Origin: an uncultured Acidobacteriota bacterium
GTDB lineage: Bacteria; Acidobacteriota; UBA6911
Direction of reading: 5' to 3'
Length of the DNA: 64,000 bases
Assembly (NCBI GenBank): GCA_963843575.1
Contig: CAWJKZ010000004.1
Location: forward strand, 32,001-96,000
How positions within the stretch are numbered: position 1 is the stretch's first letter; every line of letters starts with the position of its first letter. Shown here piece after piece: positions 9,773 to 57,690 of the stretch. A program made the position numbers and the translations under genes. The notes beneath the pieces are model-generated. The model worked only from the letters and a program-made list of their open reading frames with translations, ran no database searches and had not been told where the DNA came from.

Positions 9773-9791
9773 AGCTGCACTCCTAAGGGAA

Positions 9792-10334: not shown

Positions 10335-10362
10335 GCCCTTCCTCGGGGGAAACACTCGTTAA

Positions 10363-12633: not shown

Positions 12634-12646
12634 GCTTCTTTCTTAT

Positions 12647-24329: not shown

Positions 24330-24486
24330 GTGAGGCCATGTCAGACAGAGTCCTTCTCGAGGTGCGCCGCGGGCCCCGCCTCGAAAGCCCGAAGGGCTCG
24401 AAGAGTCCCAGCGGACTCTCGCGCGATCCCTTAGAGTGCCCGCGACTGCAGCCATTCAAGAACTGGAGTTCAGGGGAGAGAGCCAC

Positions 24487-25848
24487 ATGAACATTTCGGT
24501 CATCGGCACCGGGTACGTCGGGTTGGTCACGGGTGCTTGCTTCGCAGAATTCGGCCTCAAGGTGACGTGCGTCGATAAGGACAAGAAAAAGATCCAGGAG
24601 CTTTCCCAGGCGAAGATCCCTATCTACGAGCCAGGGTTGGAGGAAATCGTGCGCCGGAACATGGCCACCGGCTTCCTGCGCTTCACTTCCGACATCGATG
24701 AGACGATTCAGAACTCGCTGGCCACCTTCATCGCCGTGGGGACGCCCTCGCGCTCGGACGGCAGCGCGGATCTCTCCTATGTGGATGAAGTCGCCGAGGC
24801 GATCGCCCGGAACCTGACGGGGTACAAGGTGATCGTCACCAAGAGCACGGTCCCGGTCGGGACCGGTGACCGAATCCGTGCGACCATCGAGAAGGTGCTC
24901 GAAAAGAAGCCGGCAGCGGCGGCGGGCTCGACCGGCTCCTTTCAGGTTTCCACCAACGGGCACCGGCCGTTGTTCGACGTCGTGTCCAACCCCGAGTTCC
25001 TGCGCGAAGGGAGTGCGGTGGAGGATTTCCTGCACCCGGACCGCATCGTCATCGGCGCCGACAGCGAACACGCCGTCGCGATTCTGAAGGACCTGTACAG
25101 CCCGCTCTATCTGGGGGGGAAGGCCAAGTTCGTCATCACGGACGTGCGCACCGCGGAACTCATCAAGTACGCCACCAACGCCTACCTGGCTACCAAAATC
25201 ACCTTCATCAACGAAATCGCGAACCTGTGCGACATCGTCGGTTCGAACGTGCTCACGATCGCCAGCGCCCTCGGCATGGACGGCCGCATCAGCCCCAAAT
25301 TCCTGAACCCGGGACCCGGTTATGGCGGATCGTGCTTCCCCAAGGACACACGCGCGCTCTGGAAGATTGCCGAAGGGGCCGGCTATCACTTCGATGTGCT
25401 CGACGCCGTGATTCGCGCCAACGAGCGCCAGCACAAAATCATGGTGGAGAAAATCAAGAAGGCCACCGGGGGGCTGCGCGGCAAGATCATCGGGATGCTC
25501 GGCCTTTCCTTCAAACCGAACACCGACGACATCAGGGAATCCCCCGCCATTGCCATCGCCCGCGAGCTCAAAAAGGGAGGCGCCGTGGTGCGCGCCTGCG
25601 ACCCGGCGGCGGCACAGGCCGCCAAGGGCGAACTTCCCGGGCTAGTGATCTGCGGCGACGTGGACACCGTCGCGCGCGGGGCCGACGCGCTGGTCATCGC
25701 CACCGAGTGGAATCAGTTCCGCAACCTGGACCTTGCCCGCCTCAAGAAACTGCTCCGGACGCCGCTCCTCGTTGACCTGCGGAACATCTACATCCCCTCC
25801 CGGGTGAGGGAAGCGGGATTTGAGTACGTAGGAGTCGGCCAGTCCTAA
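24487..25848 (+). CDS. ugd: UDP-glucose 6-dehydrogenase
   Basis: IGTGYVGL, IAVGTP, KSTVPVGT, SNPEFLREG, GYGGSCFPKD, GLSFKPNTDDIRESP. Confidence 0.96.
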   Translation: MNISVIGTGYVGLVTGACFAEFGLKVTCVDKDKKKIQELSQAKIPIYEPGLEEIVRRNMATGFLRFTSDIDETIQNSLATFIAVGTPSRSDGSADLSYVDEVAEAIARNLTGYKVIVTKSTVPVGTGDRIRATIEKVLEKKPAAAAGSTGSFQVSTNGHRPLFDVVSNPEFLREGSAVEDFLHPDRIVIGADSEHAVAILKDLYSPLYLGGKAKFVITDVRTAELIKYATNAYLATKITFINEIANLCDIVGSNVLTIASALGMDGRISPKFLNPGPGYGGSCFPKDTRALWKIAEGAGYHFDVLDAVIRANERQHKIMVEKIKKATGGLRGKIIGMLGLSFKPNTDDIRESPAIAIARELKKGGAVVRACDPAAAQAAKGELPGLVICGDVDTVARGADALVIATEWNQFRNLDLARLKKLLRTPLLVDLRNIYIPSRVREAGFEYVGVGQS

Positions 25849-31411: not shown

Positions 31412-34400
31412 ATGGCTAGATTCTTTCTGGATCGTCCGGTTTTTGCATGGGTTGTCGCAATCGGCATGATGCTGGCCGGCGGCCTGGCGATCTACAATCT
31501 TCCCATCTCCCAGTACCCCCCGATCGCTCCGCCGTCGATCTCGATCCGAGGCGTCTACCCCGGCGCATCGGCCAAGACGGTGGAAGACAGCGTGGTTCAG
31601 ATCATCGAACAACAGATGACCGGACTGGACCGGATGCTTTACATCCACTCCACGTCCGATTCTTCAGGCATGGCACAGATCGAGCTGACCTTTGCCCCGG
31701 GCACCGATCCCGATCTGGCCTGGGCCAAAGTGCAGAACAAGCTTCAGCTCGCCATGCCGGTGTTGCCGGAGGTGGTCCAGCGCCAGGGTCTCAGGGTCAG
31801 CAAGTCCACCCGCAATTATCTGATGATCGTCGGGCTCACTTCCCTGGATGACAGCCTCGACCAGAATGATCTGTCCGACTACACTTTCTCGCAGATTCAG
31901 TATTCGCTGGCCCGCGTGCCCGGCGTGGGCGAAGTGGAGATGTTCGGCGCCGGGTATGCGATGCGGATCTGGCTGGACCCGAACAAACTCACGAATTACA
32001 GCATGACCTCGGACGACGTGATCGCGGCGGTCCGGGCCTACAACGTGCAGGTGTCTGCCGGCCAGTTCGGCGGGATGCCTGCGGTGCCGGGCCAGCGGCT
32101 CAATGCTTCCATCATCGTCCAGACGCTCCTGAAGACGCCGGAGGAGTTCGGCGCCATCCCGCTGCGCAACAATCCGGACGGATCCATCGTGCGGGTACGG
32201 GACGTGGCGCGCACGGAACTGGGGACCGAGTTTGACAACGTCAGGGTCAAATATAACGGACACCCCACATCCGGTCTCGCGATCCGGCAGGAGGCCGGGG
32301 CCAACGCTCTGGACACCGCCGCCGGCGTAAAAGCCAAGATGGAGGAGTTGTCCCGCTACTTTCCCGCCCGGCATGCAGGTTGTTTACCCCTTCGACACGA
32401 CTCCCTTCGTACGGGTAGCCATCAACGAAGTCGTCAAGACCCTCATCGAGGCGATCATCCTCGTCTTCCTGGTCATGTTTCTCTTCCTGGGGAACATGCG
32501 CGCCACGCTCATCCCCACGATTGCCGTGCCGGTGGTGATTCTGGGGACTTTCGGCGTTCTCGGACTGTTCGGTTATTCCATCAACATGCTGACGATGTTT
32601 GCCATGGTCCTGGCGATCGGCCTCCTTGTGGATGATGCCATCGTCGTGGTGGAAAACGTGGAGCGTGTGATGTCCGAAGAGGGCCTCTCCGCCGCTGGAA
32701 GCCACCCGGAAATCCATGGACCAGATTACCAGCGCGCTGGTCGGCATCGGGCTTGTTCTTTCGGCGGTCTTCGGCCCCATGATGTTCTTCGGCGGATCCA
32801 CCGGCGTCATCTACCGCCAGTTCTCTATCACGATCATCTCCTCCATGCTTCTCTCGGTCCTGGTGGCTTTGATCCTGACGCCGGTGCTCTGCGCCTCTCT
32901 TCTCAAGCCGGTGGGCAAGGGACACGAAGCCGCGGAAACCGGCTTCCGTCTCCTCCGGCCGTTTTTCCTGTGGTTCGACCACATGTTTCTCCGTCTTCGC
33001 GGGACACTACCAGTCCGCGGTGGGGCACATGCTCGGCGCCAGGCTCCGCTACCTCGCCGTTTTTGTCCTGATCGTGGCGGCGATGGGTTTTCTCTTCGTG
33101 AGGATGCCTACGGCCTACCTGCCGGACGAGGACCAGGGCGTGCTCATGGCCATGGTGCAACTGCCCCCCGGTTCGACCCTGGAGCAGACTGAAGCGGTCA
33201 TGGAAAAGGTGCGGAACCATTTCCTGGTGGATCAGAAGGAGGCGGTGGAATCCTGCATGACCATCTCCGGATTTGGCTTGGCCGGCCAGGCACAGAACCA
33301 GGGTATGGCCTATATCAAGCTTCGAGACTGGGACCTGCGCAACAGGCCGGACCTTCGGGTAAAGGGCATCTTGGGAAAGGCGATGCCGTTTCTCTCCCGT
33401 ATTCGGGAAGCGACCGTCTTCGTCTTTCCGCCTCCTGCCGTCACGGAACTCGGCACGGCGAAGGGATTTGACTTCATGCTGCAGGACCGCGGCGGACTCG
33501 GCCACGAGAAGCTGATGGATGCCCGGCTCCAGCTCCTTGGCCAGGCTATGCGCGACCCGCGGCTGACCGCCGTCCGGCCAAATGGGATGCCGGACCAGGC
33601 CGAGTACAAGGTGGATATCGACTGGGAGAAGGCCGGCACCCTCGGCGTGTCGGTGCCGGCGATTCAACGTTCGATCTCGGCGGCCTTCGGCAGCGCTTAT
33701 GTCAACGACTTCATACAGGGGGGGCGGGTCCAGCGCGTCTATGTGCAGGCGGACGCCCCCTACCGGATGCTCCCGGACGATCTGAACCATCTTTATGTCC
33801 GGAATACCGTGGGCGGCATGGTTCCCGTCTCCGCCCTCGCGTCGGGGCGCTGGACGTACGACTCCCCTCGGCTCGAGCGGTACAACGGTTTTCCGGCTCT
33901 GAATTTCCAGGGGGAAGCTGCCCCCGGAAGGAGCACCGGCGACGCCATGAAGGCCATGGAAGAGATCACCAAAAACTGCCCCGGGGCATCGGCTATGAGT
34001 GGACCGGCCTCTCCTACCAGGAGCGGCTGAGCCAATCCCAGACGGGGCTCCTGTATGCCTTCTCCATTCTCGCGATCTTCCTGGTCCTGGCAGCCCTGTA
34101 CGAGAGCTGGTCGATTCCGATCTCGATTCTGCTCGCCTTGCCGCTCGGAGTGATCGGCGGCGTGCTGGCCATCCTCCTCGCGGGGATTGCCCAATGACGT
34201 CTACTTCCAGATCGGACTGCTGACCGTCCTGGGACTGACGACCAAGAACGCGATCCTGATCGTGCAGTTCGCCAAGATCCGCGTGGAACAGGGTAAGGGC
34301 TTGATCGAGGCCACGCTCGAAGGGGCGAAGCTCAGGCTTCGTCCCATCGTGATGACGTCGCTGGCGTTCGGCTTCGGCGTTTTGCCGCTGGCGATCGCCA

Positions 34401-36092: not shown

Positions 36093-36494
36093 ATGAATCC
36101 TGCAAGGGAGTTTTCCAATTCTGCACGTCACCCATACAGATGGTCGGCGAATGACCATCATAAAGATCGCAGGGCGTCTCGCCGGAGCACACGTGGCCGG
36201 TACGACTGGCCCGGGAACATACGAGAACTTCAGAACGTGATCGAACGCTCCGTGGTTCTGACCCGGGGGCAAGTCCTCGAGCTGGCCATGCCCGAGACCA
36301 GTGCCGGCACTCCCGTCGTCAGGCTGAGAACGGACGTCACCTCGGACGCGGACCGGAAGAAGATCCTGCAGGCCTTGAAGGATAGTAGAGGCGTGGTCGG
36401 CGGTCCTGACGGCGCAGCGGCGCTGTTGGGCCTGAAGCGGACGACGCTCCAGGCCCGGATGAAGAAGCTGGGAATCACCCGCAACTACAACTAG
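36093..36494 (+). pseudogene. C-terminal relic of an FhlA/NifA-like sigma54 activator (end of AAA+ plus Fis HTH)
   Basis: YDWPGNIRELQNVIERSV and GGPDGAAALLGLKRTTLQARMKKLGI; no Walker A or GAFTGA upstream. Confidence 0.8.
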
Positions 36495-38637: not shown

Positions 38638-39669
38638 ATGAAGCCTTCCGGAGGGAAAACTTTTCGAGTTACGGGTTCTGTGTTTGGCGGCGGCGGGTCC
38701 GGCTTGGAGCTGCATGAGGCTAACCGTGCAAGGACAGGGCTCATCCCTGTCGGCATGGTGGGCGCGGGGAGAAGCCGCAACGGCCTTGGTCCGTTTCTGG
38801 CGGAGTTCCTCGAGACGGCGGGCTTCCTGGTGGCGGGAGTCTCCGGACGGACACCCGAGCGGGCGGTCGCGAATGCGGAGGGAATCGGACGGCGCCTGGG
38901 ACACGAGGTGAGAGCGTTCGCCTCCCCGGCAGCCCTGTGCGCCAGCGGGGTCGCCGCGCTGGTGATCTCCTCGCCCGCAGAATGTCATCTCGAGGCGCTG
39001 CAAGGCGCCGCGGAAGCCGGGTTGCCGACCCTGTGCGAGAAACCGCTGGTCCACGAAGGTGACTGTGCGACAGGGGCGGCGGTCATAGAGACCTTTGCGC
39101 GCGAGCGCCTCCCACTCCTGGAGAACTGCCAGTGGCCCTATGTGCTGCCCGCGTTCGTTCGGCTTCACGGAGCAATGGAGGCCGGGAGCGAACTCAGGGT
39201 CGAGATGGGCCTATGCCCGCCGCGGCCCGGGCGGGAAATGGTGCAGAGCACCCTCTCGCACCTGTTGAGCGTTATCCAGGCCATCGTGACTTTCGATCCG
39301 GGAACCGTCGTCGGAGACGTGCGCCTCGATGAATCGGTCCGGGCAACGAGCCGTGTGCTTCGATTCGACCTGGCCGGTCACGGGAGAACTGTCGAAGGCG
39401 TGCTCCACCTGGAGATCTGTGTGGCCCCGCCCCGTCCAGCCTGGTTGGCGATTGGCGGTCTCCGGATGGACCGGATTGTCCGCGAAGGTCACTCGATCGC
39501 CTTTTCGGCGAACGGCAGGGAGGCTGCCATCGGCGATCCGGTGCGGGAGTTGGTGAGGCGTTTCGGATCCCTGGTGCGAAGCCGCGATCCCGTTCTGATG
39601 GATTTCGAACGTGGCCTTGTGCGTCAACGACTCGAGTGGTATCGGCAGATTCTGGGCAAATTGAAATGA
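38638..39669 (+). CDS. Gfo/Idh/MocA-like NAD(P)-dependent oxidoreductase (divergent)
   Basis: VGMVGAGR Rossmann motif, LVISSP..CH, LCEKPL; start uncertain. Confidence 0.75.
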   Translation: MKPSGGKTFRVTGSVFGGGGSGLELHEANRARTGLIPVGMVGAGRSRNGLGPFLAEFLETAGFLVAGVSGRTPERAVANAEGIGRRLGHEVRAFASPAALCASGVAALVISSPAECHLEALQGAAEAGLPTLCEKPLVHEGDCATGAAVIETFARERLPLLENCQWPYVLPAFVRLHGAMEAGSELRVEMGLCPPRPGREMVQSTLSHLLSVIQAIVTFDPGTVVGDVRLDESVRATSRVLRFDLAGHGRTVEGVLHLEICVAPPRPAWLAIGGLRMDRIVREGHSIAFSANGREAAIGDPVRELVRRFGSLVRSRDPVLMDFERGLVRQRLEWYRQILGKLK

Positions 39670-40871
39670 CTCCACGCATGGATATGGCGAAGGTACTCGT
39701 GCGCTATAGCGGTGGGCCGGATGGCCTCGAGGGCGACGTTCTGCGCATGCTCGAGGGGTCATTTGGGCCGGTCCTGTCCCGCTTGCGGGGTGGCGATGAG
39801 GCGTCGGGCGCCGGCGGAAATGCTTCCGATGCTGAAAGGGTCGCGCACGGGGTGGCCCAGGTCGTCGCGAGCTTCTCGCGAAGTGCAACGATGCCGGCGG
39901 TCCGTGAGAAAGCCATCGAAGGGATTTACACCCGGGTCCTCGAGTTCGTCCGAAGGAGCATCCCAGTGGAAGCCCAGATGCTCTGGTCCCCCAAAAAACA
40001 CTGGATAGTTGGAGACGAAAGCGCGGTCGATCTTGCCGAACTGGCAGCGCTCCAGACGCTGCTCTCCATTGACTCTACCGTGCGGGATGTCTATCCGAGG
40101 GGGGTGTCGTTTCTGCTCGAAGTGGAGGACATCGAATTCGAGTTCATGGAGGGGCAAGACAAGGAAGTCGTCGTTGCGCGGGAGACATACATTTCCAGCC
40201 TGAGGCGCTTGATCGGGGCACTGCAGCTGGGTGACGTCTTTACCCTCCGCAGGGTGAGCGAGCACGCGCAGAGCAAAGAAGAGCTTTTGCGGTGGCGACA
40301 GCAGATGGCAGCGAACTACCGGGCGCTCGAAACCTATTGGTACGAATCCGAGGAACGGACCCTCTCGTCGCAGGAGGATTTGCCGAGTTTCAAAGAGCTT
40401 CGCAGACTGGGCTGGACGGGCACGATCCCAGCCGATATGCGCCGGTACTACCTGAATCGCCTTGGAAAACTCGCCGACGCGCCCGAAAGGGAGAGGGTGG
40501 ACATGGTGCTGCGGAACCTTGCAGGCATCCTGTTTCATCACCAGATGGGCTTGCTTCGAGGTTCCGGCGTCGCCGACCCCGTCAGGTTCTCGTTCGTGCG
40601 CTCGGCCGATGCCGCTCCTCCGGAATTGCTGGTCGGGCGAGTGGATCTTCGCTTTGCGCCGAGAAGACTCTGCAGCCGCGTGAGCGCAGCGGCGCCTTGG
40701 GCGACGAAGGGTTTCGTGTGCGGTCGGAAGGATCGCCTGGCGGTATCGTTCCGAGGCTGGCACGAACTGGATGGGGCACAATATCGGTTCGCAGAGGGTT
40801 GGCTCACTGTGGCCGGGTGCGAGGGCATCGCCAAGGTGCGGGCTGATTTCCGGCGCAACGAGGTTGAGTAA
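39666..40871 (+). CDS. Hypothetical protein, divergent PvcA/IsnA/Dit1 (isocyanide synthase)-like
   Basis: ATGA coupling to the upstream gene; motif order P....LWSPKK, VDLAELAALQTL, VYPRG...ED, YISSLRRLI, APW resembles the PvcA family. Confidence 0.6.
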   Translation: MTPRMDMAKVLVRYSGGPDGLEGDVLRMLEGSFGPVLSRLRGGDEASGAGGNASDAERVAHGVAQVVASFSRSATMPAVREKAIEGIYTRVLEFVRRSIPVEAQMLWSPKKHWIVGDESAVDLAELAALQTLLSIDSTVRDVYPRGVSFLLEVEDIEFEFMEGQDKEVVVARETYISSLRRLIGALQLGDVFTLRRVSEHAQSKEELLRWRQQMAANYRALETYWYESEERTLSSQEDLPSFKELRRLGWTGTIPADMRRYYLNRLGKLADAPERERVDMVLRNLAGILFHHQMGLLRGSGVADPVRFSFVRSADAAPPELLVGRVDLRFAPRRLCSRVSAAAPWATKGFVCGRKDRLAVSFRGWHELDGAQYRFAEGWLTVAGCEGIAKVRADFRRNEVE

Positions 40872-40883
40872 AGCGCAAGCCCG

Positions 40884-42113
40884 TCAGCGCCCGCTCTTCT
40901 GAGATCCTTCGGGACCTCGAGGCGGTCTCGGAGGTATGTCTTGCAGCTCACCCCCAGCGGTGCAAACACCCGCGGAATCCACGAATCCGACGACATCCAG
41001 GAAGCGGCCGACGGTGGCCCCCCAGGTTTCTCCTCGAACGGATTCGCGCGCATATCCTGCCATCCGACGCCACCGTTCCCGGTCTGCCACCAGGACCCTC
41101 ATCCAGTGGGCGAACTCCTCGGGATCGGCCCTGGCCGCCAGTATGCCGTTTTCCCCATTCTGGACGCGCTCCGAGGCATTCGGCACATCCGTCAGAATCA
41201 CGGGAGTGCACATCCAGAAGGCTTCGCGCAGAACTCCAGGTATCGGGCCGAAACGCATGGGAAAAACAAACAGTCGGGCCGACGCCAGCAGCTCGATGTA
41301 CTGCCGGTAATCGCCTGGATCATCCTTGCGCAAGTACCCGTGGCAGACGACATGGGCCTGGTCCCCGGGCAACTCGCCCTTCGCGACGCCCACAAGATGC
41401 AGAGTGAACGGGTCCTGTGATCTGGAATTAAAGCGCTGAAACGCGCTCAGAAGTACGTCCACGCCTCGATGATGAAAACCGCGGCCGATGAACAGAAGGT
41501 CCCGGGAGGCCTCCTTTCGGGCGATCAGTGCGCTCGAATCCGGAGAGTCCTGTTCACCTAGATTGATGCCCGCCGTTAGCAGTGCCGGATTTGCGACGCG
41601 ATAGCGGTCCCGTACGAACTCCATGCAAGCCCGATTAAAGCTGAAAACGTACTGCGCGTTTTGCAGGTTCAGCCTCTCCCTCCGGATGAGCCAGCGATCG
41701 ACCTGGCTCGGGCGCACGCCCCGTTCCGCCAGATAGTGCTCGTACGTGCGATCGCAATAGTGGGCTACCGGCACATCCGAGTAACGATAGGAAGAGAATG
41801 AAAAAGTCAGAAACAGGTTCAGATCGGCGTCGCCGAAGGCTCGGCACGTTTTTGACAGCCGGGAATTCACCAGCCGGTGGAAAGCAGGAATCCTGAGGAG
41901 CGGACGTGGCTGCACCCCGCGCCTGGAGGCTGCGCGGTTGAAGATGTCGTTCAGCACGGACAGCGCCCGTTGGCTCGATCCCCCTTCCGGAACAAGGTTG
42001 ACCCGTCTTACCTCGACCTTGCGGGAGATGAGCGCGCGCGCGAAAAAGTAGGGCACATTCGACCAGGTGTTTATGTCGTTCGAATCACCCCAGGAAAACA
42101 GATTGATCTTCAC
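40884..42113 (-). CDS. GT4 family glycosyltransferase
   Basis: WGDSNDINTWSNVPYFF, LLFIGR..HHRGVD, GYLRK, LFVFP, EAFWMCTPVI, NGENG; start may be 42155. Confidence 0.85.
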   Translation of the reverse strand: MKINLFSWGDSNDINTWSNVPYFFARALISRKVEVRRVNLVPEGGSSQRALSVLNDIFNRAASRRGVQPRPLLRIPAFHRLVNSRLSKTCRAFGDADLNLFLTFSFSSYRYSDVPVAHYCDRTYEHYLAERGVRPSQVDRWLIRRERLNLQNAQYVFSFNRACMEFVRDRYRVANPALLTAGINLGEQDSPDSSALIARKEASRDLLFIGRGFHHRGVDVLLSAFQRFNSRSQDPFTLHLVGVAKGELPGDQAHVVCHGYLRKDDPGDYRQYIELLASARLFVFPMRFGPIPGVLREAFWMCTPVILTDVPNASERVQNGENGILAARADPEEFAHWMRVLVADRERWRRMAGYARESVRGETWGATVGRFLDVVGFVDSAGVCTAGGELQDIPPRPPRGPEGSQKSGR

Positions 42114-42249
42114 AGGATTCTCGGTGGAACAGAGCGAACCCCCGCCTGTCGCCACGCGGCCCTGGGCCGTTCGAGCCGACAGGTCCGCAGGTTGCGGGCG
42201 GGTTTGTGACCGGCCGCGTTTTATTCATCGGCCGACTGCGTTGCCCGCT

Positions 42250-48047: not shown

Positions 48048-50060
48048 ATGGGGGAGTTTTTGGAGGCGTTCGCCGCCGGGCTTCTTGGTCTGTTTCATTG
48101 GCCGGAATTTGGGCTGATGCTGATCGGTACGTGCCTGGGGGGAGTAGTCGGGCTCCTCCCCGGCATTGGAGGAGCCGCGACGCTGGTAATCCTCCTCCCG
48201 TTTGCATACGCCATGAAGCCCGAGCACGGCCTTGCGCTCCTGGTTTCGATGATCGCGGTCGTGACGACGACGGGGGACATCACCTCGATTTTGTTTGGCA
48301 TCCCGGGCGAGGGAACGACCGCAAGCACCGTCGTGGATGGCTACCCCATGACACGGCAGGGGGAATCCCGCCGAGCGCTTGGGGCCGCCATCACCGCTTC
48401 CGCAGTCGGTGCGGCCTTCGGTGCTCTCACTCTTGCGGCTGCCATCCCGTTCGTCCGCCCCCTGGTGCTTTCGATCGGCTCCCCCGAGTTCTTCATGCTC
48501 GCGCTGCTGGGCATCAGCTTCCTGTCCTTGATCTCCCGGGGGAGCGCTCTCAAGGGACTCATCGCGGGAGGCATCGGTCTCCTGCTGGCGACGGTCGGAA
48601 TCGACACCATCGATGGCGTTCCCAGATACAGCTTCGACATCCTGTTTCTTTGGGACGGCATCGGAGTGCTGCCCGCGGCCATGGGGCTGTTCGCGGTTCC
48701 GGAAGTCCTCGCGCTCGTGACGACGGCGAAAGACCCGATGTTCCAGCGGCCGATTGAGGATTCGGGAAGCGTTTTGGCGGGCATCCGGGATGCCGTTCGC
48801 CACCGTTGGCTTGTCTTGAGGTGCAGCGCCCTCGGCACATACATCGGCCTTTTGCCGGGCATGGGAGCTTCGATCTCCCAGTGGGTGGCGTACGCCCACT
48901 CGGTACAGAGCTCGAAAGATCAGGAGCGGTTCGGAAAGGGAGCCGTCGAAGGGGTTCTGGGCCCGGCAGCCGCGAACAACTCCACGCTCGGAGGTGCACT
49001 GATTCCCACTCTCGGCTTCGGCATTCCCGGGAGTCTCGGCACCACCATACTTCTGGGTGCTATGCTCGCGCAGGGTATCGTTCCCGGCCCCAAAATGCTC
49101 ATCCCGGAGACGCAGGGCGGACACCTCACCCTGACCTTCACGATTGTCTGGATTGTCATCGTCTCGAATCTGATCGCCTCGGGGATATCCCTGGCGGCTC
49201 TCAGGCAGCTGGCGAAGATCACCAACATCCGCGGCAGGGTCCTGTTTCCTTTGCTCCTGTCCTTCATATGCCTCGGCTCGTTCGCGGAAAAAAACGCCAT
49301 TGAAGACCTGCTGGTGGTGGCGGCGGTGGGGGTGTTGGGCTGTGTGATGAAGCGCCTGGACTGGCCGCGGCCACCGTTGCTCCTCGGCCTCATCCTGGGG
49401 CCGATCGCGGAGAACAAGCTTTTCATCTCGCAGAACCTGTACGGCTGGTCCTGGGTACTGCGGCCGGGAGTCCTCGTAATCCTGGCAATCATTCTGGCCG
49501 GATTTTGCCAACCCCTCATCCGGTTGCTCGTGCGCAGACTTGCCGGGAGGGGCGGTGCCACGTCCCCGCCGTCAGTCGCGCGGCAAGCCGATTCCGAATC
49601 ATCCCCCCCGCTTCCCTCGTTTCTTTTCAGCCTGTTTACCCTGGGGGTGTCTCTCATGGGGCTCTTCATGGCGCGAGACCTGAGTTTCCGATCGGGTCTC
49701 TTCCCCCGAGGTGCGTGTCTCCTCGTACTCGTCTTGTCGCTGATCGAGGTTGTTGGAGGGATTCTCCAACAGCGTCGGCAGACGCCGGGGAGGGCAGCGA
49801 TGGTCTCGAGGCGGGAGCCGGATTCTGGCCGGCGTGGGATCATCTGGTGGTGCCTGGGCTACCTGGCGGCTATCTGGCTTGTCGGATTCATAATCGCAAT
49901 TCCAGTTTTTACCTTTCTCTTCCTGAGGTTCGGTGCACGGGAGAGAGGGTGGCTCAGCTTTGCCATGGCGGCGGGGTGTTTCATCTTCCTCTATGGTTTG
50001 ATGTCGATGGCCCTTCATACGCCGTTCCCGGAAGGAATCATTTTTCAGGCAATTGCCTGA
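48048..50060 (+). CDS. tctA: TctA permease with fused C-terminal TctB-like domain
   Basis: GLLPGIG, GIPGE..T..DGYPM, AANN, GIPGS, PLLLGLILG, then about 150 aa with 4 TMs (LFPRG ... TPFPEG) typical of TctB. Confidence 0.88.
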   Translation: MGEFLEAFAAGLLGLFHWPEFGLMLIGTCLGGVVGLLPGIGGAATLVILLPFAYAMKPEHGLALLVSMIAVVTTTGDITSILFGIPGEGTTASTVVDGYPMTRQGESRRALGAAITASAVGAAFGALTLAAAIPFVRPLVLSIGSPEFFMLALLGISFLSLISRGSALKGLIAGGIGLLLATVGIDTIDGVPRYSFDILFLWDGIGVLPAAMGLFAVPEVLALVTTAKDPMFQRPIEDSGSVLAGIRDAVRHRWLVLRCSALGTYIGLLPGMGASISQWVAYAHSVQSSKDQERFGKGAVEGVLGPAAANNSTLGGALIPTLGFGIPGSLGTTILLGAMLAQGIVPGPKMLIPETQGGHLTLTFTIVWIVIVSNLIASGISLAALRQLAKITNIRGRVLFPLLLSFICLGSFAEKNAIEDLLVVAAVGVLGCVMKRLDWPRPPLLLGLILGPIAENKLFISQNLYGWSWVLRPGVLVILAIILAGFCQPLIRLLVRRLAGRGGATSPPSVARQADSESSPPLPSFLFSLFTLGVSLMGLFMARDLSFRSGLFPRGACLLVLVLSLIEVVGGILQQRRQTPGRAAMVSRREPDSGRRGIIWWCLGYLAAIWLVGFIIAIPVFTFLFLRFGARERGWLSFAMAAGCFIFLYGLMSMALHTPFPEGIIFQAIA

Positions 50061-50076
50061 GGTGGAGGACAGGCCA

Positions 50077-53000
50077 GTGGACTTGACCGGCAACTCACCG
50101 TTCAAACCAGAAGAAGGCCCGGCTCACTGCCAGCCATCGGCCAGGCACGTCACGTTTCCCAAGGACGCCTTGGAGGCCTCGATCCCGAACCGATTCGAAG
50201 ATCAGGTCGTCATCCACGCGCATCGGATGGCAGCCAAGACGCGCCTTCGCGAGTGGACCTACGCCGGGCTCAACAGGTTCTCGAACCGGCTCGCGCACGC
50301 CTTGCTCCTGGAGGGGGCACAGCCTGAACAGCGCATCGCCCTGCTGCTGGAACACGACGCTCTCCCCATCGCGTCGTTTCTCGCAGTACTGAAAGCGGGA
50401 GGGATTTGCGTTCCCCTGGAACCGCATCTCCCGGAGGGACGAATCCAGTACATCCTGCAGGATGCCGAGGCGGATTTGCTCGTCACGAATAACCGGAATC
50501 TCCCGCTTGCCCGGCGCATGACCGATTCGGTGCGGCGCATCCTGAATGTGGACGACCTTTCCCAGCGGCTTCCGGAGGGAAACCCCTCGCTTTCGATTCG
50601 GCCGAAGGCGCCGGCCTACCTCATCTACACTTCGGGTTCCACGGGGATGCCCAAGGGTGTCATCCAGAATCATCGGAACGTGCTTCACGACGTCTGGGCC
50701 TACACCCACGGCTTCTCCATAGATTCCTCAGATCGCCTCTGTCAACTGGCCTCCTGCAGCGTGGGTCAGGGAATCAAGGTGTGCTTCAACGCCTTGCTCA
50801 ACGGGGCCACACTGTTGCCGTTCAACGTGCGCGAGGAGGGGACGGCCGGCCTGGCGGCGTGGCTGAACGAGCAGGGGATCACTGTCTACCTTTCTGCCGC
50901 CACGGTCTTCCGGCACCTGACCGGCGTCCTCACCGGGAAGGAACGGTTTCCCTCCGTCCGGCTCCTCCGCCTCGCCAGCGAGCCGATCCGCCGGTCCGAT
51001 TATGAGCAGTTCAAGCGGTTTTTCCCTCCCGAGTGCATGTTCGCCAACGGGTTGTCGTCGAGCGAGACCGGCAATTACACCCAATGCTTGGTGAGGAGCG
51101 CCGACGACATTCCCGGCAATCTCGTGCCTGTCGGATATCCCGTGGAGGACAAGGAGGTCCTGCTCCTGGACGACGACGGGCGCGTGGTCCGCGAGGGGGA
51201 GGTGGGGGAAATCGCCGTCAAGAGCGCCTTCCTGTCGCCGGGCTACTGGCGGCGCCCGGAGTTGACCCGGAAGGTGTTCCTGCAGGTGGCTGAGGATCCC
51301 GAGAAGATGATTTACCTGACCGGGGATCTGGGGTTTCGCCACCCCGACGGCCGGCTCGAGCACCGGGGCCGGAAGGGATTCCAGATCAAGATTCGCGGCT
51401 ATCGGGTCGAGTTGGACGAGGTTGAAACGGTTCTGAAAAATCATCCCTCGGTCCGGGATGCGGTGGTGAAAGCCTCTGAATCCAAGTCCGGGGAGATGCG
51501 CCTGATCGCGTACGTCGTCCCTGAACGAGAGCCTCCCAGGATCGCCCACCTCCGCGATCATCTCCGGAGCTCGCTGCCTGATCCCATGCTGCCGGCTGCC
51601 TTCGTATTCCTGGATGCAATTCCCCTGGCACCCTCGGGGAAGCCCGACCGCCAGGCGCTGCGCGTGCCCGAGACCTTGTCGAACGCGTCGGAGGACGATT
51701 TCCTGGCTCCACGCGACGCGGTGGAAGAGCAGCTTGTCGCTATCTGGGCCGACGTGCTCAAGGTGAACCGAGTGGGTGTGCTCGACAACTTTTTCGAACT
51801 CGGGGGTCATTCACTGACTGCCACGCAGGTTACCTCCCGCGTGCGCAGTCTCTTCCAGGTGGAGATGCCGCTCCGCGAGTTTCTGGAGAACCCGACCATC
51901 GCGGATCTTGCGCGGTCCATCGCCCGGCAAAGGAGTCGGGGTCCGGTGTGCGGCGAACCGGCCGTCAGGCCCGTGTCCCGGGACCGGGAGCTCCCTCTCT
52001 CCTTCGCCCAGCAGAGGCTTTGGTTCCTGAATCAGCTGATCCCCGACGATCCCGTCTACAACATGTCCCGTGTCATCCGCATCGAGGGATCCCTGAACCT
52101 GGCCGCACTGGAGAGGTGCCTTACCGAAATCGTCAGGCGGCATGAACCGCTACGGACCATCTTCCCGTCCCGCGACGGCCGGCCTTACCAGAGGATCCTG
52201 GATCCCGGGCCGATCGTCCCGGAGATCGTTGATCTGTCCGGGCGGCCGCGTGCGGAAGCCGAAGCGGAAGCAAGGGCACGGATCGACTGGGAAGTGCACC
52301 GTCCCTACAACCTGCAGGAAGACCTGCCGCTCCGGACGCTACTCGTCCGCCTGGAACCCGAAGAGCACCTTCTGGTCCTGACGCTTCACCACATCGTTTC
52401 CGACCGGTGGTCACGCTGGATCCTGACCCGCGAGCTGACCGCTCTGTACCAGGCGTTTTCCGAGGACAAGGCCTCGCCGCTCCCGGACTTGCCCATACAA
52501 TACGCGGATTTCGCGTGCTGGCAGCGGGATTGGCTGAGTGGGGAGGTGCTGTCGCAGCAGGTGTCTTACTGGAAAACCCAGTTGAGCGGCGTCCCCGTCC
52601 TGGAACTTCCAGCCGATCGTCCCCGGCCGGCAATCCAGAGTTCACGCGGCGCCTCGATTTCTTTCGCGGTCAACTCGGCCGTGTCGGAGGCGCTTCGCCA
52701 GCTGGCTCAGAGCGAGGGGAGCACGCCCTACATCATGTTTCTGGCCGCATTCCAGTGTCTGCTGCACCGTTACACCGGCCAGGAGGACTTCGCCGTCGGC
52801 ACCCCGATCGCCAATCGCAACCGCGTCGAAATCGAGGGCCTCATCGGGTTCTTCGTAAACACGCTTGTGCTGCGGGCAAACATGGCGGGGAATCCCACCT
52901 TCCGCGAGATCCTGCGGAGGACCCGCGAGGCGGCACTGGGGGCGTTCGCCCATCAGGACCTGCCTTTCGAGAAGATCGTGGAAGAGCTCAACCCCGAACG

Positions 53001-55125
53001 CCACACGAATCGCACGCCCCTCTTCCAGGTGATGTTTGCACTCCAGAACGTGCCCTCGTCCGAACTTCAGCTTGCGGGTCAGCGGATCAGCACCGTCGAG
53101 TTCGATCACGGTACGGCGATGTTCGACCTCACACTCTCGATTTTCGAGGCTCCGGGGAACTACAGGGGCGTTATTGAATTCAACACGGATCTGTTCGATC
53201 GGGACCGGATCGCCCGCATGCAGGGGCATTTCTGCACCATGCTCGAGGCGATCGCCGCCGATCCGGACCTCCGTGTCGGCACACTGCCGCTCCTGACCGG
53301 ATCCGAACGCAGGCAGATTGTGGACGAGTGGAACGAGGCTCGGCTTGCCCATGCGGGGGGTCCGTGCGTTCATCAGCTGTTTGCAGCGCAGGCGGAGCGG
53401 ACACCCCACGCCGTCGCGGTGATCGGCCGGGAAGGAGAAATGTCGTACGCCGAGCTCGACCGGCGCGCCAACCAGGTCGCGCATTACCTCCGGTCGCTGG
53501 GGGTCGGCCCCGAGGTCTGCGTCGGCATCCACCAGGTGAATTCGTTGGACCTCGTGGTTTCAATCCTCGGTACGCTCAAGGCGGGAGGAGCCTACGTCCC
53601 GCTCGATCCCGGCTATCCCAGGTCGCGCCTCGAGTTCATGATAGAGGACGCGAATATCGCAGTCCTGCTGTGCGATCCTGCACTGGCTGGTTCGTTGCCC
53701 GGGACGACGGCGCGCGTGAGCTGTCTCGACTCCGTGCGGGGGGTGATCCGCCAACAGCCCGAGAACTGTCCGAATTCCGTCGTCGGCCCGGAAAATCTCG
53801 CGTACGTGATCTATACGTCCGGCTCGACGGGCAGGCCCAAGGGCGTCATGATCTCCCATCGGGCGATCGGCCATCACACGCTGTGGATACGATCGGCCTT
53901 CTCCTGGAACGGAACCGATCGATTTGCTTTTCACACGCCCATCAGCTTCGACACCTTCGCTTGCGACCTCTACGCGCCCCTCTCGGTCGGCGCCCGAGTG
54001 GTGCTGCTTCCTCCTGAAGAGCGTCGGGACATGGCGGCTCTCGCACGACTCATCGAGGAACACGAGATTACGTCGCTGCAGGTCGTGCCTTCGATGTTGC
54101 CGCCGCTGCTGAACCAGCCGGAGTTCGGGAGGAAACGCGCGCTCAGGCTTGTCCTGTGCGGCGGCGAGGCACTGTTGCGCGAACAGGCCACCAGGTTCCA
54201 CGCGCGTCTCGAAGCCCGGCTGTTCAACCTTTACGGGCCTACGGAAACCACCGTTGACGCCACCTGCCATCAAGTGCGCGCGGGCGATACGTCCGCCAAT
54301 GTCCCGATTGGGAAACCGATCTCCATTACCAGGGTCTACATCCTCGACCGGTACATGAACCCCGTCCCCGTAGGCGTGCCCGGCGAAATCCACATCGGGG
54401 GCGTGAGTCTCGCGCGAGGATATCTGAGGCGTCCGGATCTGACGGCCGGCGTGTTTCTCCCCAACCCGTTCGGTAACGAGCCCGGGGAGAGGCTATACAG
54501 GAGCGGCGACCTTGCGCGCTATCGGGCTGACGGGGAAATCGAATTCCTCGGTCGAGTGGACGACCAGGTCAAGCTGAGAGGTTTCCGGATCGAACTTGGG
54601 GAGATCGAATCGTGCCTGACACAACATCAGGAAGTGGAGGCGGCAGCAGTGATCTGCCGCGAGGATCCCACCGGGGAGAAACGACTGGCTGCCTACATCG
54701 TCCCCCGGGGAGCAGCCGCGCCGGGGAAAAAGGAGCTTCGGGAATTCCTCAACCGCATGTTACCCGAGCATATGGTGCCGGCCGACTTTGTATTCATGGC
54801 TGGTTTCCCATGCCTGCCCAACGGCAAAATCGATCGCAAGTCTCTCCCGCTGCCTGAAGTTGATCGACTGTCCGAGACCGGGCAGTATGTCGCCCCCCGC
54901 ACTCCGGATGAGGAGCGGGTGGCGAGGGTTTGGGCACAGGTGCTCGGCCTGGAACAGGTTGGAGTGTTCGATGATTTCTTCGAACTGGGAGGGCACTCTC
55001 TCCTTGCGACACGGGTGATTTTGCGGCTGAGAGAGGAATTCCAGACAGACCTGCCGCTGCGTGTGCTGTTCGACAACCCGACGGTGGCCGACCTGGTGGC
55101 CCAGATTGTCCAACAGGTCCAGTGA
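50077..55125 (+). CDS. Non-ribosomal peptide synthetase, A-T-C-A-T, no TE or R domain
   Basis: YTSGSTGMPKG, FFELGGHSL, LSFAQQRLW, HHIVSDRWS, YTSGSTGRPKG, YGPTE, NGKIDR, FFELGGHSL; GTG at 50077 after GGAGG. Confidence 0.95.
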   Translation: MDLTGNSPFKPEEGPAHCQPSARHVTFPKDALEASIPNRFEDQVVIHAHRMAAKTRLREWTYAGLNRFSNRLAHALLLEGAQPEQRIALLLEHDALPIASFLAVLKAGGICVPLEPHLPEGRIQYILQDAEADLLVTNNRNLPLARRMTDSVRRILNVDDLSQRLPEGNPSLSIRPKAPAYLIYTSGSTGMPKGVIQNHRNVLHDVWAYTHGFSIDSSDRLCQLASCSVGQGIKVCFNALLNGATLLPFNVREEGTAGLAAWLNEQGITVYLSAATVFRHLTGVLTGKERFPSVRLLRLASEPIRRSDYEQFKRFFPPECMFANGLSSSETGNYTQCLVRSADDIPGNLVPVGYPVEDKEVLLLDDDGRVVREGEVGEIAVKSAFLSPGYWRRPELTRKVFLQVAEDPEKMIYLTGDLGFRHPDGRLEHRGRKGFQIKIRGYRVELDEVETVLKNHPSVRDAVVKASESKSGEMRLIAYVVPEREPPRIAHLRDHLRSSLPDPMLPAAFVFLDAIPLAPSGKPDRQALRVPETLSNASEDDFLAPRDAVEEQLVAIWADVLKVNRVGVLDNFFELGGHSLTATQVTSRVRSLFQVEMPLREFLENPTIADLARSIARQRSRGPVCGEPAVRPVSRDRELPLSFAQQRLWFLNQLIPDDPVYNMSRVIRIEGSLNLAALERCLTEIVRRHEPLRTIFPSRDGRPYQRILDPGPIVPEIVDLSGRPRAEAEAEARARIDWEVHRPYNLQEDLPLRTLLVRLEPEEHLLVLTLHHIVSDRWSRWILTRELTALYQAFSEDKASPLPDLPIQYADFACWQRDWLSGEVLSQQVSYWKTQLSGVPVLELPADRPRPAIQSSRGASISFAVNSAVSEALRQLAQSEGSTPYIMFLAAFQCLLHRYTGQEDFAVGTPIANRNRVEIEGLIGFFVNTLVLRANMAGNPTFREILRRTREAALGAFAHQDLPFEKIVEELNPERHTNRTPLFQVMFALQNVPSSELQLAGQRISTVEFDHGTAMFDLTLSIFEAPGNYRGVIEFNTDLFDRDRIARMQGHFCTMLEAIAADPDLRVGTLPLLTGSERRQIVDEWNEARLAHAGGPCVHQLFAAQAERTPHAVAVIGREGEMSYAELDRRANQVAHYLRSLGVGPEVCVGIHQVNSLDLVVSILGTLKAGGAYVPLDPGYPRSRLEFMIEDANIAVLLCDPALAGSLPGTTARVSCLDSVRGVIRQQPENCPNSVVGPENLAYVIYTSGSTGRPKGVMISHRAIGHHTLWIRSAFSWNGTDRFAFHTPISFDTFACDLYAPLSVGARVVLLPPEERRDMAALARLIEEHEITSLQVVPSMLPPLLNQPEFGRKRALRLVLCGGEALLREQATRFHARLEARLFNLYGPTETTVDATCHQVRAGDTSANVPIGKPISITRVYILDRYMNPVPVGVPGEIHIGGVSLARGYLRRPDLTAGVFLPNPFGNEPGERLYRSGDLARYRADGEIEFLGRVDDQVKLRGFRIELGEIESCLTQHQEVEAAAVICREDPTGEKRLAAYIVPRGAAAPGKKELREFLNRMLPEHMVPADFVFMAGFPCLPNGKIDRKSLPLPEVDRLSETGQYVAPRTPDEERVARVWAQVLGLEQVGVFDDFFELGGHSLLATRVILRLREEFQTDLPLRVLFDNPTVADLVAQIVQQVQ

Positions 55126-55153
55126 ATTGGGGCACGGGTGGGAGGAGGAGCAA

Positions 55154-56128
55154 ATGGCGACGCGACGCAGGCTGGGCAAGACGGACATCGAAGTGAGTCC
55201 GGTGGGGCTGGGCTGCTGGCAGTTTTCTGCCGGTCAGGGGCTGGTCGGGAAATTCTGGGAGGCGATACCGCAGTCGGCGGTGGACCGGGTGGTGGAAGCC
55301 TCGCTGGCGGGCGGCATCAATTGGTTCGATACCGCCGAGATGTACGGCAACGGCGCTTCGGAGCGCGCCCTGGCCGCGGCGCTCACCCACGCAGGCAAGA
55401 AAGACGGCGAGGTGGTGGTGACCACCAAGTGGTCGCCGCTGTTCCGCACCGCAGAGTCCATCAAGTCGACCATCCATCAGCGCCTGAGCTGCCTCGCCCC
55501 CTTCGGCGTCGATTTGCACCAGGTGCACAACCCGCTGGGATTCTCGTCGATCGAGGCCGAGATGCGCGCCATGGCGGAGCTGGTCGCGGACAAAAGGATC
55601 CGCGCGGTCGGCGTGAGCAATTTCAACGTTGCGCGCATGCGCCGGGCGCACGCGGCGCTGGCGAAGTACGGCGTTGCGCTGGCCTCGAACCAGGTGAAGT
55701 ACAGCCTGCTCGACCGGCGCGTGGAGTTCGACGGCACCCTGGCGGCGGCCCGGGAACTGGGCGTCACCATCATCGCCTACTCGCCGCTGGAGCAGGGGCT
55801 GCTCACCGGCAAATACCACCAGGATCCGGATTACGTCAGAACGAGGCCCGGTCCGCGCAAGTGGATGGGCCGCTTCCGCGCCCAAGGCCTCCGGCGCAGC
55901 CGGCCCCTCGTCGAGGAGCTCGGCGTGATCGCGCGGGCGCATGGCGCAACCGCCGCGCAAGTCGCCCTCGCCTGGCTTTGCCAGTTCCACCAAGACTTGG
56001 TGGTCGCGATTCCAGGCGCCAGCCGAGTCGAGCAGGCCGTGGAAAACCGGGGTGCGCTAAGCCTGACCCTGTCTCCAGCCGCACTCGAAAAGCTAGATCA
56101 ACTCTCGCGTGGGGACGCACCAATGTAA
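55154..56128 (+). CDS. Aldo/keto reductase
   Basis: GLGCWQ, FDTAEMYG.G.SE, GVSNF, SNQV.YSLL, AYSPL.QGLLTGKY, AIPGA. Confidence 0.94.
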   Translation: MATRRRLGKTDIEVSPVGLGCWQFSAGQGLVGKFWEAIPQSAVDRVVEASLAGGINWFDTAEMYGNGASERALAAALTHAGKKDGEVVVTTKWSPLFRTAESIKSTIHQRLSCLAPFGVDLHQVHNPLGFSSIEAEMRAMAELVADKRIRAVGVSNFNVARMRRAHAALAKYGVALASNQVKYSLLDRRVEFDGTLAAARELGVTIIAYSPLEQGLLTGKYHQDPDYVRTRPGPRKWMGRFRAQGLRRSRPLVEELGVIARAHGATAAQVALAWLCQFHQDLVVAIPGASRVEQAVENRGALSLTLSPAALEKLDQLSRGDAPM

Positions 56129-56341
56129 CTCATATGTTATCAGTGCTTTGCCTGATTTTTGTCCTCGAAAAGTGGCCTTAAATTCGATTTTTGCCGCTCT
56201 TTTTTGCATTTAAGCAATCTCCTCCCGCAGCAAGCCCGTTGGGATGGCCGTTATTCCAGGGGAATGGCCCAAAAAATCGCAAATAAGGCCGCTTTTGGGG
56301 CACGAAATAGCGTTAAGTCACTCATCAATAAAGCACTTACT
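56125..56341. mobile_element. AT-rich repeated element with imperfect inverted ends (copy A)
   Basis: AAAAGTGGCCTTAAATTCGATTTTTG pairs imperfectly with CAAAAAATCGCAAATAAGGCCGCTTTT; 23 bp at 56161-56183 are identical to 60946-60968. Confidence 0.55.
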
Positions 56342-56382
56342 CGGGTCCGTCCCCGGTAGTAGAATTGACGAGGGGGGGAATC

Positions 56383-57690
56383 ATGCAGAACTCAGAGGGT
56401 TCGAAGTTGGGTCGCCGTTCGTTTCTGATTTCAGCGATCGGCTCGAGTGCACTGTCCTATGCCCGCATCCCCGGAGCCAACGACCGGATCGCGCTTGGGC
56501 ACATCGGGGTGGGAAGCCGCGGCACTGAGCTGCATATGATGGTGTCGCGCGTGAAGGACAAGCACAACGTGGAGACCGTCGCCGTCTGCGACCTCTGGAA
56601 AAACAACCGGGAGCGTGCGGCGGCAAGCACCGAGCGTTACTACGGACGCGCCCCGCGCGCCTTCCAGCACATGGAGGAACTGCTCGCATTGAAGGAGGTG
56701 GACGCCGTCATGATCGCCACCCCCGAGCATTCCCATTCACCCGTCCTGAAAGCGACGGCTGAAGCGGGAAAGGACGCCTACTGCGAGAAACCGATGGGGA
56801 ACGTGCTCGCCGAAGTCAAAGCGGCCCGCGACGCGGTCAAGGAGCGCAAGCTCGTCGTGCAGGTCGGGACGCAGCACCGCAGCGAGCCCTACCAGCTCGC
56901 CGCGCGCGAAGTCGTGCGCAGCGGCGCTCTCGGAGACATAAGCAAGTATGAGATCGTCTGGAATTACAACGGCCCGCGTTGGCGCGGCCGCCCCGAGGTA
57001 AAGCAGATCCGCGAGCAGGATACCGACTGGAGGAAGTGGCTGATGACCAAGCCGCCGCGCCCCTTCGACCCGCAGCTGTATTTCGAGTTCCGCCTCTACC
57101 GCGATTTCTCCAGCGGCATCCCCGACCAGTGGATGAGCCACGGCATCGATCTCGTCCACTTCTTCCTGAACGAAGTGCCGCCCCGCTCGGTTGTCGCCCA
57201 GGGCGGCGTGTTCGCATGGCACGACGGCCGCGAGAACCCCGACACGTTTCAGGCCCTCGTCGAATACCCTTCCTTCCTGGCCAGCTTTTCGACCAGTTTC
57301 GGCAACGATTGCGACAGCTTCTCGCGGATCATGGGGAAGAAGGCGACGCTCGTCAACATCGGCGGCGAGGGGAGCCCCCGCTGGAAGGTGGTCGAGGAAA
57401 AGGGAAATCACGAAAGCAACCCCTACATCCAGCGTACCGAGAAATGGGTCACGCTTCCCGGCGACGACAAGCCCGGCCCGATCAACATCGGCGACGAGGA
57501 CCTGTCCCATCTGACCAACTGGTTCGACTGCCTGCGCAGCCGGAACGCGAAGACCAACGCGACCGTCGACACCGGCTTCATGCATTCGGTCGCCTGCATC
57601 ATGGCCACCCAATCCTACTGGCAGGGCAAGCGCCTGTATTACGATCCCAGGACCGAGCAGATAAAGGACAGTGCACCCGCGACGGCATAA
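56383..57690 (+). CDS. Tat-exported Gfo/Idh/MocA oxidoreductase
   Basis: GRRSFL Tat motif, GANDRI..GHIGVGSRG, IATPEHSH, YCEKPM, QVGTQHRS, DQWMSHGID. Confidence 0.92.
   Translation: MQNSEGSKLGRRSFLISAIGSSALSYARIPGANDRIALGHIGVGSRGTELHMMVSRVKDKHNVETVAVCDLWKNNRERAAASTERYYGRAPRAFQHMEELLALKEVDAVMIATPEHSHSPVLKATAEAGKDAYCEKPMGNVLAEVKAARDAVKERKLVVQVGTQHRSEPYQLAAREVVRSGALGDISKYEIVWNYNGPRWRGRPEVKQIREQDTDWRKWLMTKPPRPFDPQLYFEFRLYRDFSSGIPDQWMSHGIDLVHFFLNEVPPRSVVAQGGVFAWHDGRENPDTFQALVEYPSFLASFSTSFGNDCDSFSRIMGKKATLVNIGGEGSPRWKVVEEKGNHESNPYIQRTEKWVTLPGDDKPGPINIGDEDLSHLTNWFDCLRSRNAKTNATVDTGFMHSVACIMATQSYWQGKRLYYDPRTEQIKDSAPATA

Follow-up and report, generated by a model that had tools for sequence, protein, structure and literature searches.

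A single reaction, on two aromatic amino acids, is known for isonitrile synthases of the PvcA/IsnA type: the nitrogen of L-Trp or L-Tyr is joined to a carbon of the ketose ribulose-5-phosphate (PMC7949033). Yeast Dit1, a member of the Pfam family DIT1_PvcA, is reported not to be rescued by PvcA and not to be an isocyanide synthase, its likely product being formyl-tyrosine (PMC7345447). Here we describe a three-gene cassette in a 64,000-nucleotide stretch of DNA from an uncultured Acidobacteriota bacterium (contig CAWJKZ010000004.1, positions 32,001 to 96,000; hereafter the window). The cassette encodes a 401-residue protein, an oxidoreductase of the Gfo/Idh/MocA fold and a GT4-type glycosyltransferase (Table 1). 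Judged by its predicted structure, the 401-residue protein is a homologue of PvcA/IsnA that lies outside both curated sequence definitions: the fold is shared and the chemistry probably related, whereas the motifs have changed and the partners are new.

Fold and sequence kinship of the 401-residue protein

The AlphaFold2 model of the protein, built on 43 sequences, has a mean predicted local distance difference test score (pLDDT) of 84.7 and a predicted template-modeling score of 0.87. In a Foldseek search of this model the top eight chains are all from PIsnA (9dhm, 9dh4) and PvcA (3e59), with E-values of 6e-11 to 7e-8 and target-normalized template-modeling scores of 0.60-0.66, and chains of tyrosyl-tRNA synthetase (TyrRS) come next, from E 2e-4. 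VIA-align superposes 286-288 residues on PIsnA and PvcA with Z-scores of 19.9, 19.7 and 19.6 (root-mean-square deviation 3.9-4.1), whereas for TyrRS Z is 8-10, with a maximum of 10.1. Membership of the class I aminoacyl-tRNA synthetases (TyrRS/TrpRS) was rejected, as the fold resembles theirs only at that level and both the HIGH and KMSKS motifs are absent from the protein. A language-model feature search of the ESM Atlas returned clusters of DIT1_PvcA in 28 of 30 matches, with a score of 0.96. The initial annotation, made from the DNA letters, had let its proposal of an isocyanide-synthase-like gene depend on a PvcA-like predicted fold, and this is the fold that the model has.

At the level of sequence, the protein scores 14.1 bits (E 0.033) against DIT1_PvcA (PF05141), below the gathering cut-off of 26.4, and the match spans only profile positions 32-113 of 273. 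The NCBIfam equivalog TyIsonSynPvcA, which describes the L-tyrosine isonitrile synthase PvcA, matches at 18.7 bits (E 6.5e-4) and does not reach its cut-off of 600 bits. A pairwise HMMER comparison picks 9dhm_A, an isonitrile synthase, out of the PDB at E 0.55, which is weak on its own. In this alignment P109, K111, D122, E125, Y143, P144 and G146 are paired with identical residues, so that the N-terminal motifs FP.KS, PD.AE and Y.PG of isonitrile synthases can all be recognized, in agreement with the earlier claim that motif order and spacing are akin to those of PvcA/IsnA/Dit1 and that the Lys is kept. The resemblance to PvcA/IsnA goes beyond chance, and the fold match confirms it.

Other positions have changed. 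The SDG motif as a whole lies opposite V-E-D, with E154 facing its Asp, so the protein carries E-D at this site, a deviation that had been noticed at the outset. The His of TPWH, a motif that we take to be canonical for PvcA/IsnA and that none of our sequence comparisons displays, is likewise missing. The C-terminal half was compared with canonical DIT1_PvcA by structure alone. At E 1e-5, PF05141 matched none of 401 genomes sampled from the phylum, but it also found nothing in 14 control genomes, so this search is uninformative on absence; in the genome of the window itself, its single match is the sub-threshold one of the 401-residue protein.

Partner genes, wider family and phage relatives

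The start codon of the PvcA-like gene lies inside AAATGACT and overlaps the TGA of the upstream reading frame by 4 nt. The gene contains the strings quoted for it beforehand, RVLEFVRRSIPVEAQMLWSPKKH, VDLAELAALQTLLSIDSTVRDVYPRGVSFLLEVED, YISSLRRLI and APW, and the gene layout proved to be as initially described with regard to the ATGA coupling to the oxidoreductase gene, the converging GT4 gene at a stop-to-stop distance of 12 bp, and the lack of a PvcB dioxygenase, since a Pfam scan of the 42 larger open reading frames (ORFs) of the window found no Fe/2-oxoglutarate dioxygenase of the PvcB/IsnB type. A scan of the region for promoters and terminators gave nothing above chance, including no terminator-like site.

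The upstream ORF scores 33.7 bits with the Pfam model GFO_IDH_MocA (cut-off 24) and has the NAD(P)-binding N-terminal domain. Its model (pLDDT 90.0) shows the complete two-domain Gfo/Idh/MocA fold, although the first ~30 residues are poorly modeled and the true start may lie further in. The nearest chains in VIA-align (Z 23.2-25.4 over 272-301 residues) are those of the TDP-sugar 3-ketoreductase KijD10, the UDP-GlcNAc 3-dehydrogenase GnnA, GenD2 and KanD2, together with 1,5-anhydrofructose reductase (AFR), inositol and levoglucosan dehydrogenases, and NAD-dependent sulfoquinovosidases. Among 44 homologues C133, K135, P136 and H208 are invariant and E134 is nearly so. The predicted fold is consistent with a working enzyme that turns secondary alcohols into ketones, or the reverse, on a sugar or cyclitol.

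The convergent ORF carries the C-terminal GT-B donor domain with scores above the Pfam cut-off, E-values ranging from about 1e-19 to 6e-21 (6e-21 and 2e-19; Glyco_trans_1_4, 75.6 bits; Glycos_transf_1, 70.5 bits), and a profile search of the PDB matched GT4 enzymes. The start that had been assigned to it at 42113 gives 409 residues and agrees with the N terminus of its homologues (KINLF...).

The 401-residue protein is inherited together with this particular oxidoreductase and this particular GT4. A pattern scan covering one genome per GTDB species found five further loci (L001-L005), which with the window make six genomes; one, a metagenome-assembled genome, is labeled Verrucomicrobiae and the other four Acidobacteriota or Vicinamibacterales. 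The GT4 orthologue directly adjoins the PvcA-like gene in all six. The two genes converge in the window and in L001 and run in the same direction in L002-L005; by ORF coordinates only, their longest ORFs overlap by 4 nt in L002 and L005. The oxidoreductase orthologue belongs to the cassette in five of six, directly upstream of the PvcA-like gene in L001, L002 and L005 and just past the GT4 gene in L004, and it is the sole copy in each of these four genomes. The three proteins diverge in parallel: identity to the window for PvcA-like, Gfo-like and GT4 is 63, 64 and 72% in L001 and 43-49% in the other four loci, the GT4 orthologues beside the PvcA-like gene in the five other genomes being 43-72% identical. 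No genes other than these three are common to the loci. Neighborhood conservation, which had been suggested as a check, is therefore borne out, and the linkage of the PvcA-like gene to a sugar-type oxidoreductase and a GT4 looks obligate. An indirect sign of co-occurrence on metagenomic contigs is that 16 'longest contig' lengths recur in the match lists of both the PvcA-like and the Gfo-like protein. The family was found in one of 401 genomes sampled from the phylum of the window and in one of 401 sampled from that of the L001 genome, in each case the centre genome only; these are sample counts, and rarity here means not found in the genomes searched.

The genes that flank the cassette differ. 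A 650-residue PMT_2 (ArnT-like GT-C) gene is found in L003 and L004, the two proteins being 74% identical to each other, a PAP2 phosphatase gene in L002, and a B12-binding radical SAM gene in L004.

The wider family is large. A word-indexed search gave 59 relatives (45-100% identity), all hypothetical proteins and none with a precomputed Pfam domain, and an exhaustive profile search gave 490 clusters at 50% identity with E <= 0.001 (356 at <= 1e-10, 66 at <= 1e-30). In 43 close homologues S108, P109, K111, H112, W113, D122, E125, E154, D155, Y175, A342, P344, T347 and K348 are invariant. When 67 diverse members are aligned Y175 remains invariant, and R74, K111, D122, G146, E154, D155, Y224, G249, W250, G252, R259, W345, G349 and D394 are kept in at least 90%; R74, K111, D122, E154, D155, Y175, Y224, R259 and D394 are the polar positions of this set. 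The residues named in advance as PKK, DLAE and YP.G thus persist: the Lys, D.AE and Y.PG are invariant or nearly so in the 43, and K111, D122 and G146 reach 90% of the 67. The PW motif takes the form PW(S/A/R)(T/A)KG. DIT1_PvcA is the only recurrent Pfam family among the 67 (27/67 at E <= 0.01), and TyIsonSynPvcA matches 8/67 at the same threshold; of 41 relatives scanned singly, one exceeds the DIT1_PvcA cut-off.

Ten relatives are much longer than 400 residues, and seven of them carry an aldo-keto reductase (AKR; Aldo_ket_red) domain N-terminal to the PvcA-like domain (P0069, P0071, P0072, P0074, P0075, P0076 and P0081; 627-722 residues). In another long relative, P0063 (1155 residues), the extra regions match neither the Gfo-like nor the GT4 protein. 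In a quick maximum-likelihood tree of 94 rows without outgroup, with support from the Shimodaira-Hasegawa-like approximate likelihood-ratio test, the window clade (support 99) forms a group of 24 rows (support 98) together with the AKR-fused clade and two small ones, and a separate 54-row clade (support 100) includes all 13 viral sequences. The AKR domain fused ahead of the PvcA-like domain in a sister clade is a second form of the redox partner. The earlier idea of a new branch, and of its coupling to an oxidoreductase and a GT4, gains support from the conserved synteny and the AKR fusions; the product might be, as was then imagined, a non-Tyr/Trp isonitrile, a formamide or a reduced sugar-amine conjugate. 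In the literature searched, which left most subscription journals uncovered, we found neither the family nor the cassette described, and nothing on the AKR fusions or on homologues in phages.

The distant clade, of ~365 residues and with the motif PWRAKG, is phage-borne. It was found at 50 metagenomic loci (L009-L058), in a locus scan that used a narrower alignment because the broad one was too diverse, and on 18 IMG/VR contigs of 30-223 kb (L063-L080). Its hosts are large uncultivated phages, many of them gut metagenome contigs of 155-337 kb, and its gene is surrounded by replication, repair and tRNA genes. In the 16 loci examined, neighbors match PHROG families in 13 and have a named phage function in 10, among them NAD-dependent DNA ligase, DNA polymerase exonuclease subunit, primase/helicase, Dda-like helicase, exonuclease, Sak4-like annealing protein, QueC-like protein, tRNA nucleotidyltransferase, HNH endonuclease and amidase. 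The phage-clade protein itself has no PHROG family match in any of the 16. Searches of the INPHARED phage genomes by tblastn with the window protein and with a phage-clade protein gave no match, and the BFVD viral structures gave none at E <= 0.001.

Proposed reaction and its alternatives

The reading that we tentatively prefer, with a confidence that falls a little short of even, takes the three genes as a biosynthetic cassette, conserved, rare and of patchy distribution, whose PvcA-like enzyme would represent a new sister family of PvcA/IsnA, condensing an amine with a redox-generated sugar carbonyl. Like its structural neighbors, the oxidoreductase would oxidize a secondary alcohol of a sugar, sugar phosphate or glycoside to a ketone, or reduce the ketone back. 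In the PvcA-like enzyme a primary amine, probably that of an amino acid, would attack this ketone carbon to form a C=N adduct, such an attack being the hallmark first step of the superfamily. The same oxidoreductase may then reduce the adduct, giving an N-linked conjugate of sugar and amino acid, or the adduct may fragment to an isonitrile or formamide; the GT4 would supply or add the sugar. In known amino-sugar pathways the Gfo-type sugar 3-dehydrogenases GnnA, GenD2 and KanD2 pass their keto-sugar to a pyridoxal-phosphate (PLP) aminotransferase, and the PvcA-like enzyme would stand in the place of this aminotransferase. That the redox partner occurs in two forms, as a Gfo-fold gene and as an AKR fusion, suggests that this partner takes part in the core reaction and not in late tailoring. 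In its most general form, the proposal is that this very distant relative of the isonitrile synthases, which several soil bacteria retain next to a sugar-type dehydrogenase and a glycosyltransferase, probably links an amine with a carbon derived from a sugar.

Several observations weigh against a condensation of this kind. Similarity to PvcA by sequence is sub-threshold and confined to the N-terminal half, and a profile of the 43 homologues retrieved no PvcA/IsnA chain from the PDB, its single match being irrelevant (E 0.43), which is why homology had to be sought by fold comparison. With SDG replaced by E-D and the presumed TPWH His gone, the reaction may be unlike any so far described for the superfamily. 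The structural neighbors of the oxidoreductase are tied within ~2 Z units and indicate no substrate, and no Gfo-like gene was found at E <= 1e-10 in the L003 genome, where the locus sits at a contig end. Finally, the phage-clade loci examined have no Gfo, AKR or GT4 partner, so the core reaction would need neither a redox nor a glycosyltransferase partner.

The fold is also related to that of TyrRS (Z up to 10.1), which would suit a class-I-synthetase-like ligase coupling an amino acid, at the expense of ATP, to a GT4-made glycoside and giving a small protective glycoside in the manner of MshA and MshC in mycothiol synthesis or BshA and BshC in bacillithiol synthesis. The GT4 weakly matches the MshA (E 9.6e-8) and BshA (E 1.9e-4) models, and the conserved K111 and K348 lie in loops that might be the equivalents of HIGH and KMSKS, going by the secondary-structure order of the model. 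However, the model is far nearer to PvcA/IsnA (Z ~20) than to any aminoacyl-tRNA synthetase (~10), neither motif is present as sequence, the GT4 scores far under the cut-offs of both models, and the cassette is without a conserved deacetylase or acetyltransferase gene, all of which makes the ligase very unlikely. Only a little less doubtful, and still decidedly unlikely, is a function in modifying a cell-envelope glycan or lipid, for which the cassette would provide a sugar donor with an unusual N-substituent, to be transferred outside the cytoplasm by a membrane GT-C enzyme. The PMT_2 genes beside the cassette in L003 and L004 and the PAP2 gene in L002 speak for it, but such neighbors occur in just two and one of the six genomes, neither the window nor L001 has them, and the polysaccharide cluster of the window is more than 25 kb away. 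This explanation concerns the destination of the product and is compatible with the condensation that we prefer.

A true isonitrile (or N-formyl) synthase, which would combine ribulose-5-phosphate with another amino substrate and leave the Gfo-like enzyme and the GT4 to tailor the product, is favored by the predicted PvcA/IsnA fold and by the shared Lys, D.AE and Y.PG positions. It would also have a model in rhabduscin, a glycosylated isonitrile made with IsnA (PMC13005658). We nevertheless regard such a synthase as unlikely: scores fall far under the curated cut-offs, SDG and the presumed His differ, the 42 window ORFs scanned include no PvcB/IsnB-type dioxygenase, and the twofold recruitment of a redox partner suggests a part in the core reaction. 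The partial loss of canonical motifs might even indicate a catalytically dead scaffold or a regulatory subunit of the oxidoreductase. Yet about 15 polar or aromatic positions are kept in at least 90% of the 67 members, across cellular and phage clades, and the family is large, so that we find this hardly credible.

Beyond the cassette, we consider it possible, though on balance improbable, that the whole group is a large sister family with C-N bond chemistry of its own. In cells it would be tied to a dedicated carbonyl oxidoreductase and would yield aminotransferase-independent N-linked sugar-amino-acid conjugates or isonitriles from non-aromatic amines; in large uncultivated phages, where the gene sits among those for replication, the same core reaction would have a nucleotide, DNA or RNA as its target and amount to a new kind of nucleic-acid modification. 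A sister family of ~490 clusters that every curated model has missed makes the superfamily considerably wider, and it is met in three settings: the Gfo/GT4 cassette, the aldo-keto-reductase fusions and large phages. The three-gene cassette and the single fused protein are small, concrete targets for new C-N chemistry and possibly natural products. The recruitment of a redox enzyme in two forms provides a testable clue to the carbon donor, and the phage clade raises a possible role in nucleic-acid metabolism.

Surroundings of the cassette and known systems

The window holds several other features (Table 1). An AcrB-type resistance-nodulation-division (RND) pump, lying between HlyD-like and outer-membrane-factor genes, is split into at least two ORFs that cover profile positions 1-312 and 522-839 of 1021, and may reflect gene breakage or misassembly. 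A 133-residue ORF with only the AAA+ lid and Fis-type helix-turn-helix of a sigma-54 activator is probably a gene remnant. At ~9 kb from the cassette, with TctC and TctA transporter genes and an ABC exporter in between, lies a region with a 1690-residue non-ribosomal peptide synthetase (NRPS; A-T-C-A-T), after which come an aldo-keto reductase and another Gfo/Idh/MocA oxidoreductase, the second of the window and a canonical one. The exopolysaccharide cluster encodes Wzy-like, flippase, GT2, initiating sugar transferase, Wzc-like and Wza-like proteins, with NDP-sugar epimerase/dehydratase and UDP-glucose dehydrogenase also present in these regions. Two long ORFs have coding-like GC content at third codon positions (GC3) and no Pfam match at thresholds of E 1e-3 / 1e-5. 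Small shares of 0.05-0.17 are recorded for nine DNA sequencing runs, and no RNA run is listed.

Table 1. Coordinates of the cassette, of other features in the window and of genes at related loci
Feature	Coordinates	Strand	Basis or remark
Gfo/Idh/MocA-fold oxidoreductase, 343 residues from current ATG	38638..39669	+	Pfam GFO_IDH_MocA
ATGA overlap, oxidoreductase stop / PvcA-like start	39666..39669	+	Sequence read directly
PvcA/IsnA-fold protein (predicted), 401 residues	39666..40871	+	402 codons counting stop; unnamed sister family of DIT1_PvcA
Spacer of 12 bp separating the two convergent stops	40872..40883	.	Sequence read directly
GT4-type (Glycos_transf_1) glycosyltransferase	40884..42155	-	Pfam and orthologues; longest ORF 423 residues
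Exopolysaccharide cluster	1464-13663	-	
Exopolysaccharide cluster	23325-25848	+	
Long ORF, 829 residues	5229-7718	-	Coding-like GC3
Split AcrB-type RND pump	31412-34030	+	At least two ORFs
Probable remnant of sigma-54 activator	36093-36494	+	
NRPS, aldo-keto reductase, second Gfo/Idh/MocA	50053-57690	+	
Long ORF, 1000 residues	57757-60759	-	Coding-like GC3
PMT_2 gene beside cassette	L003:4204-6156	-	
PMT_2 gene beside cassette	L004:3925-5877	+	
PAP2 phosphatase gene beside cassette	L002:8321-9289	-	
B12-binding radical SAM gene beside cassette	L004:9598-12111	+	
Phage-clade example	L036:4983-6080		
Phage-clade example	L027:4995-6077		
Phage-clade example	L028:4971-6095		

Among described systems, GnnA, GenD2, KanD2 and KijD10 share with the cassette oxidoreductase the two-domain fold (Z 23.4-25.4) and the invariant Lys of its C-E-K-P, but sequence identity is 13-20%, and the cassette pairs its oxidoreductase with a PvcA-like protein where GnnA, GenD2 and KanD2 have a PLP aminotransferase. 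The rhabduscin pathway, with IsnA, IsnB and a glycosyltransferase, likewise combines an enzyme of the isonitrile-synthase type with a glycosyltransferase (PMC13005658); it differs in that the window ORFs scanned include no IsnB-type gene and in that the synthase-like protein of the window belongs to another family. Yeast Dit1, which serves the spore wall with N-formyl-tyrosine, shows by precedent that the superfamily can have other outcomes; unlike the window protein, Dit1 falls inside Pfam DIT1_PvcA, and it works with the P450 Dit2.

The closest relatives remain PvcA of P. aeruginosa (3e59) and PIsnA (9dh4, 9dhm), the L-Tyr/L-Trp isonitrile synthases, with which the predicted structure has the fold in common over ~287 residues, together with the P..K, D.AE and Y.PG positions and an acidic residue at the D of SDG. 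Identity to them is nonetheless 12-16%, and the window protein, under both the Pfam and NCBIfam cut-offs, is ~50 residues longer at its N terminus. Its family has E-D for SDG and (S/A)TKG after PW, where the motif as we presume it has His, and its partners are a Gfo-fold oxidoreductase and a GT4 in place of the PvcB/IsnB dioxygenase.

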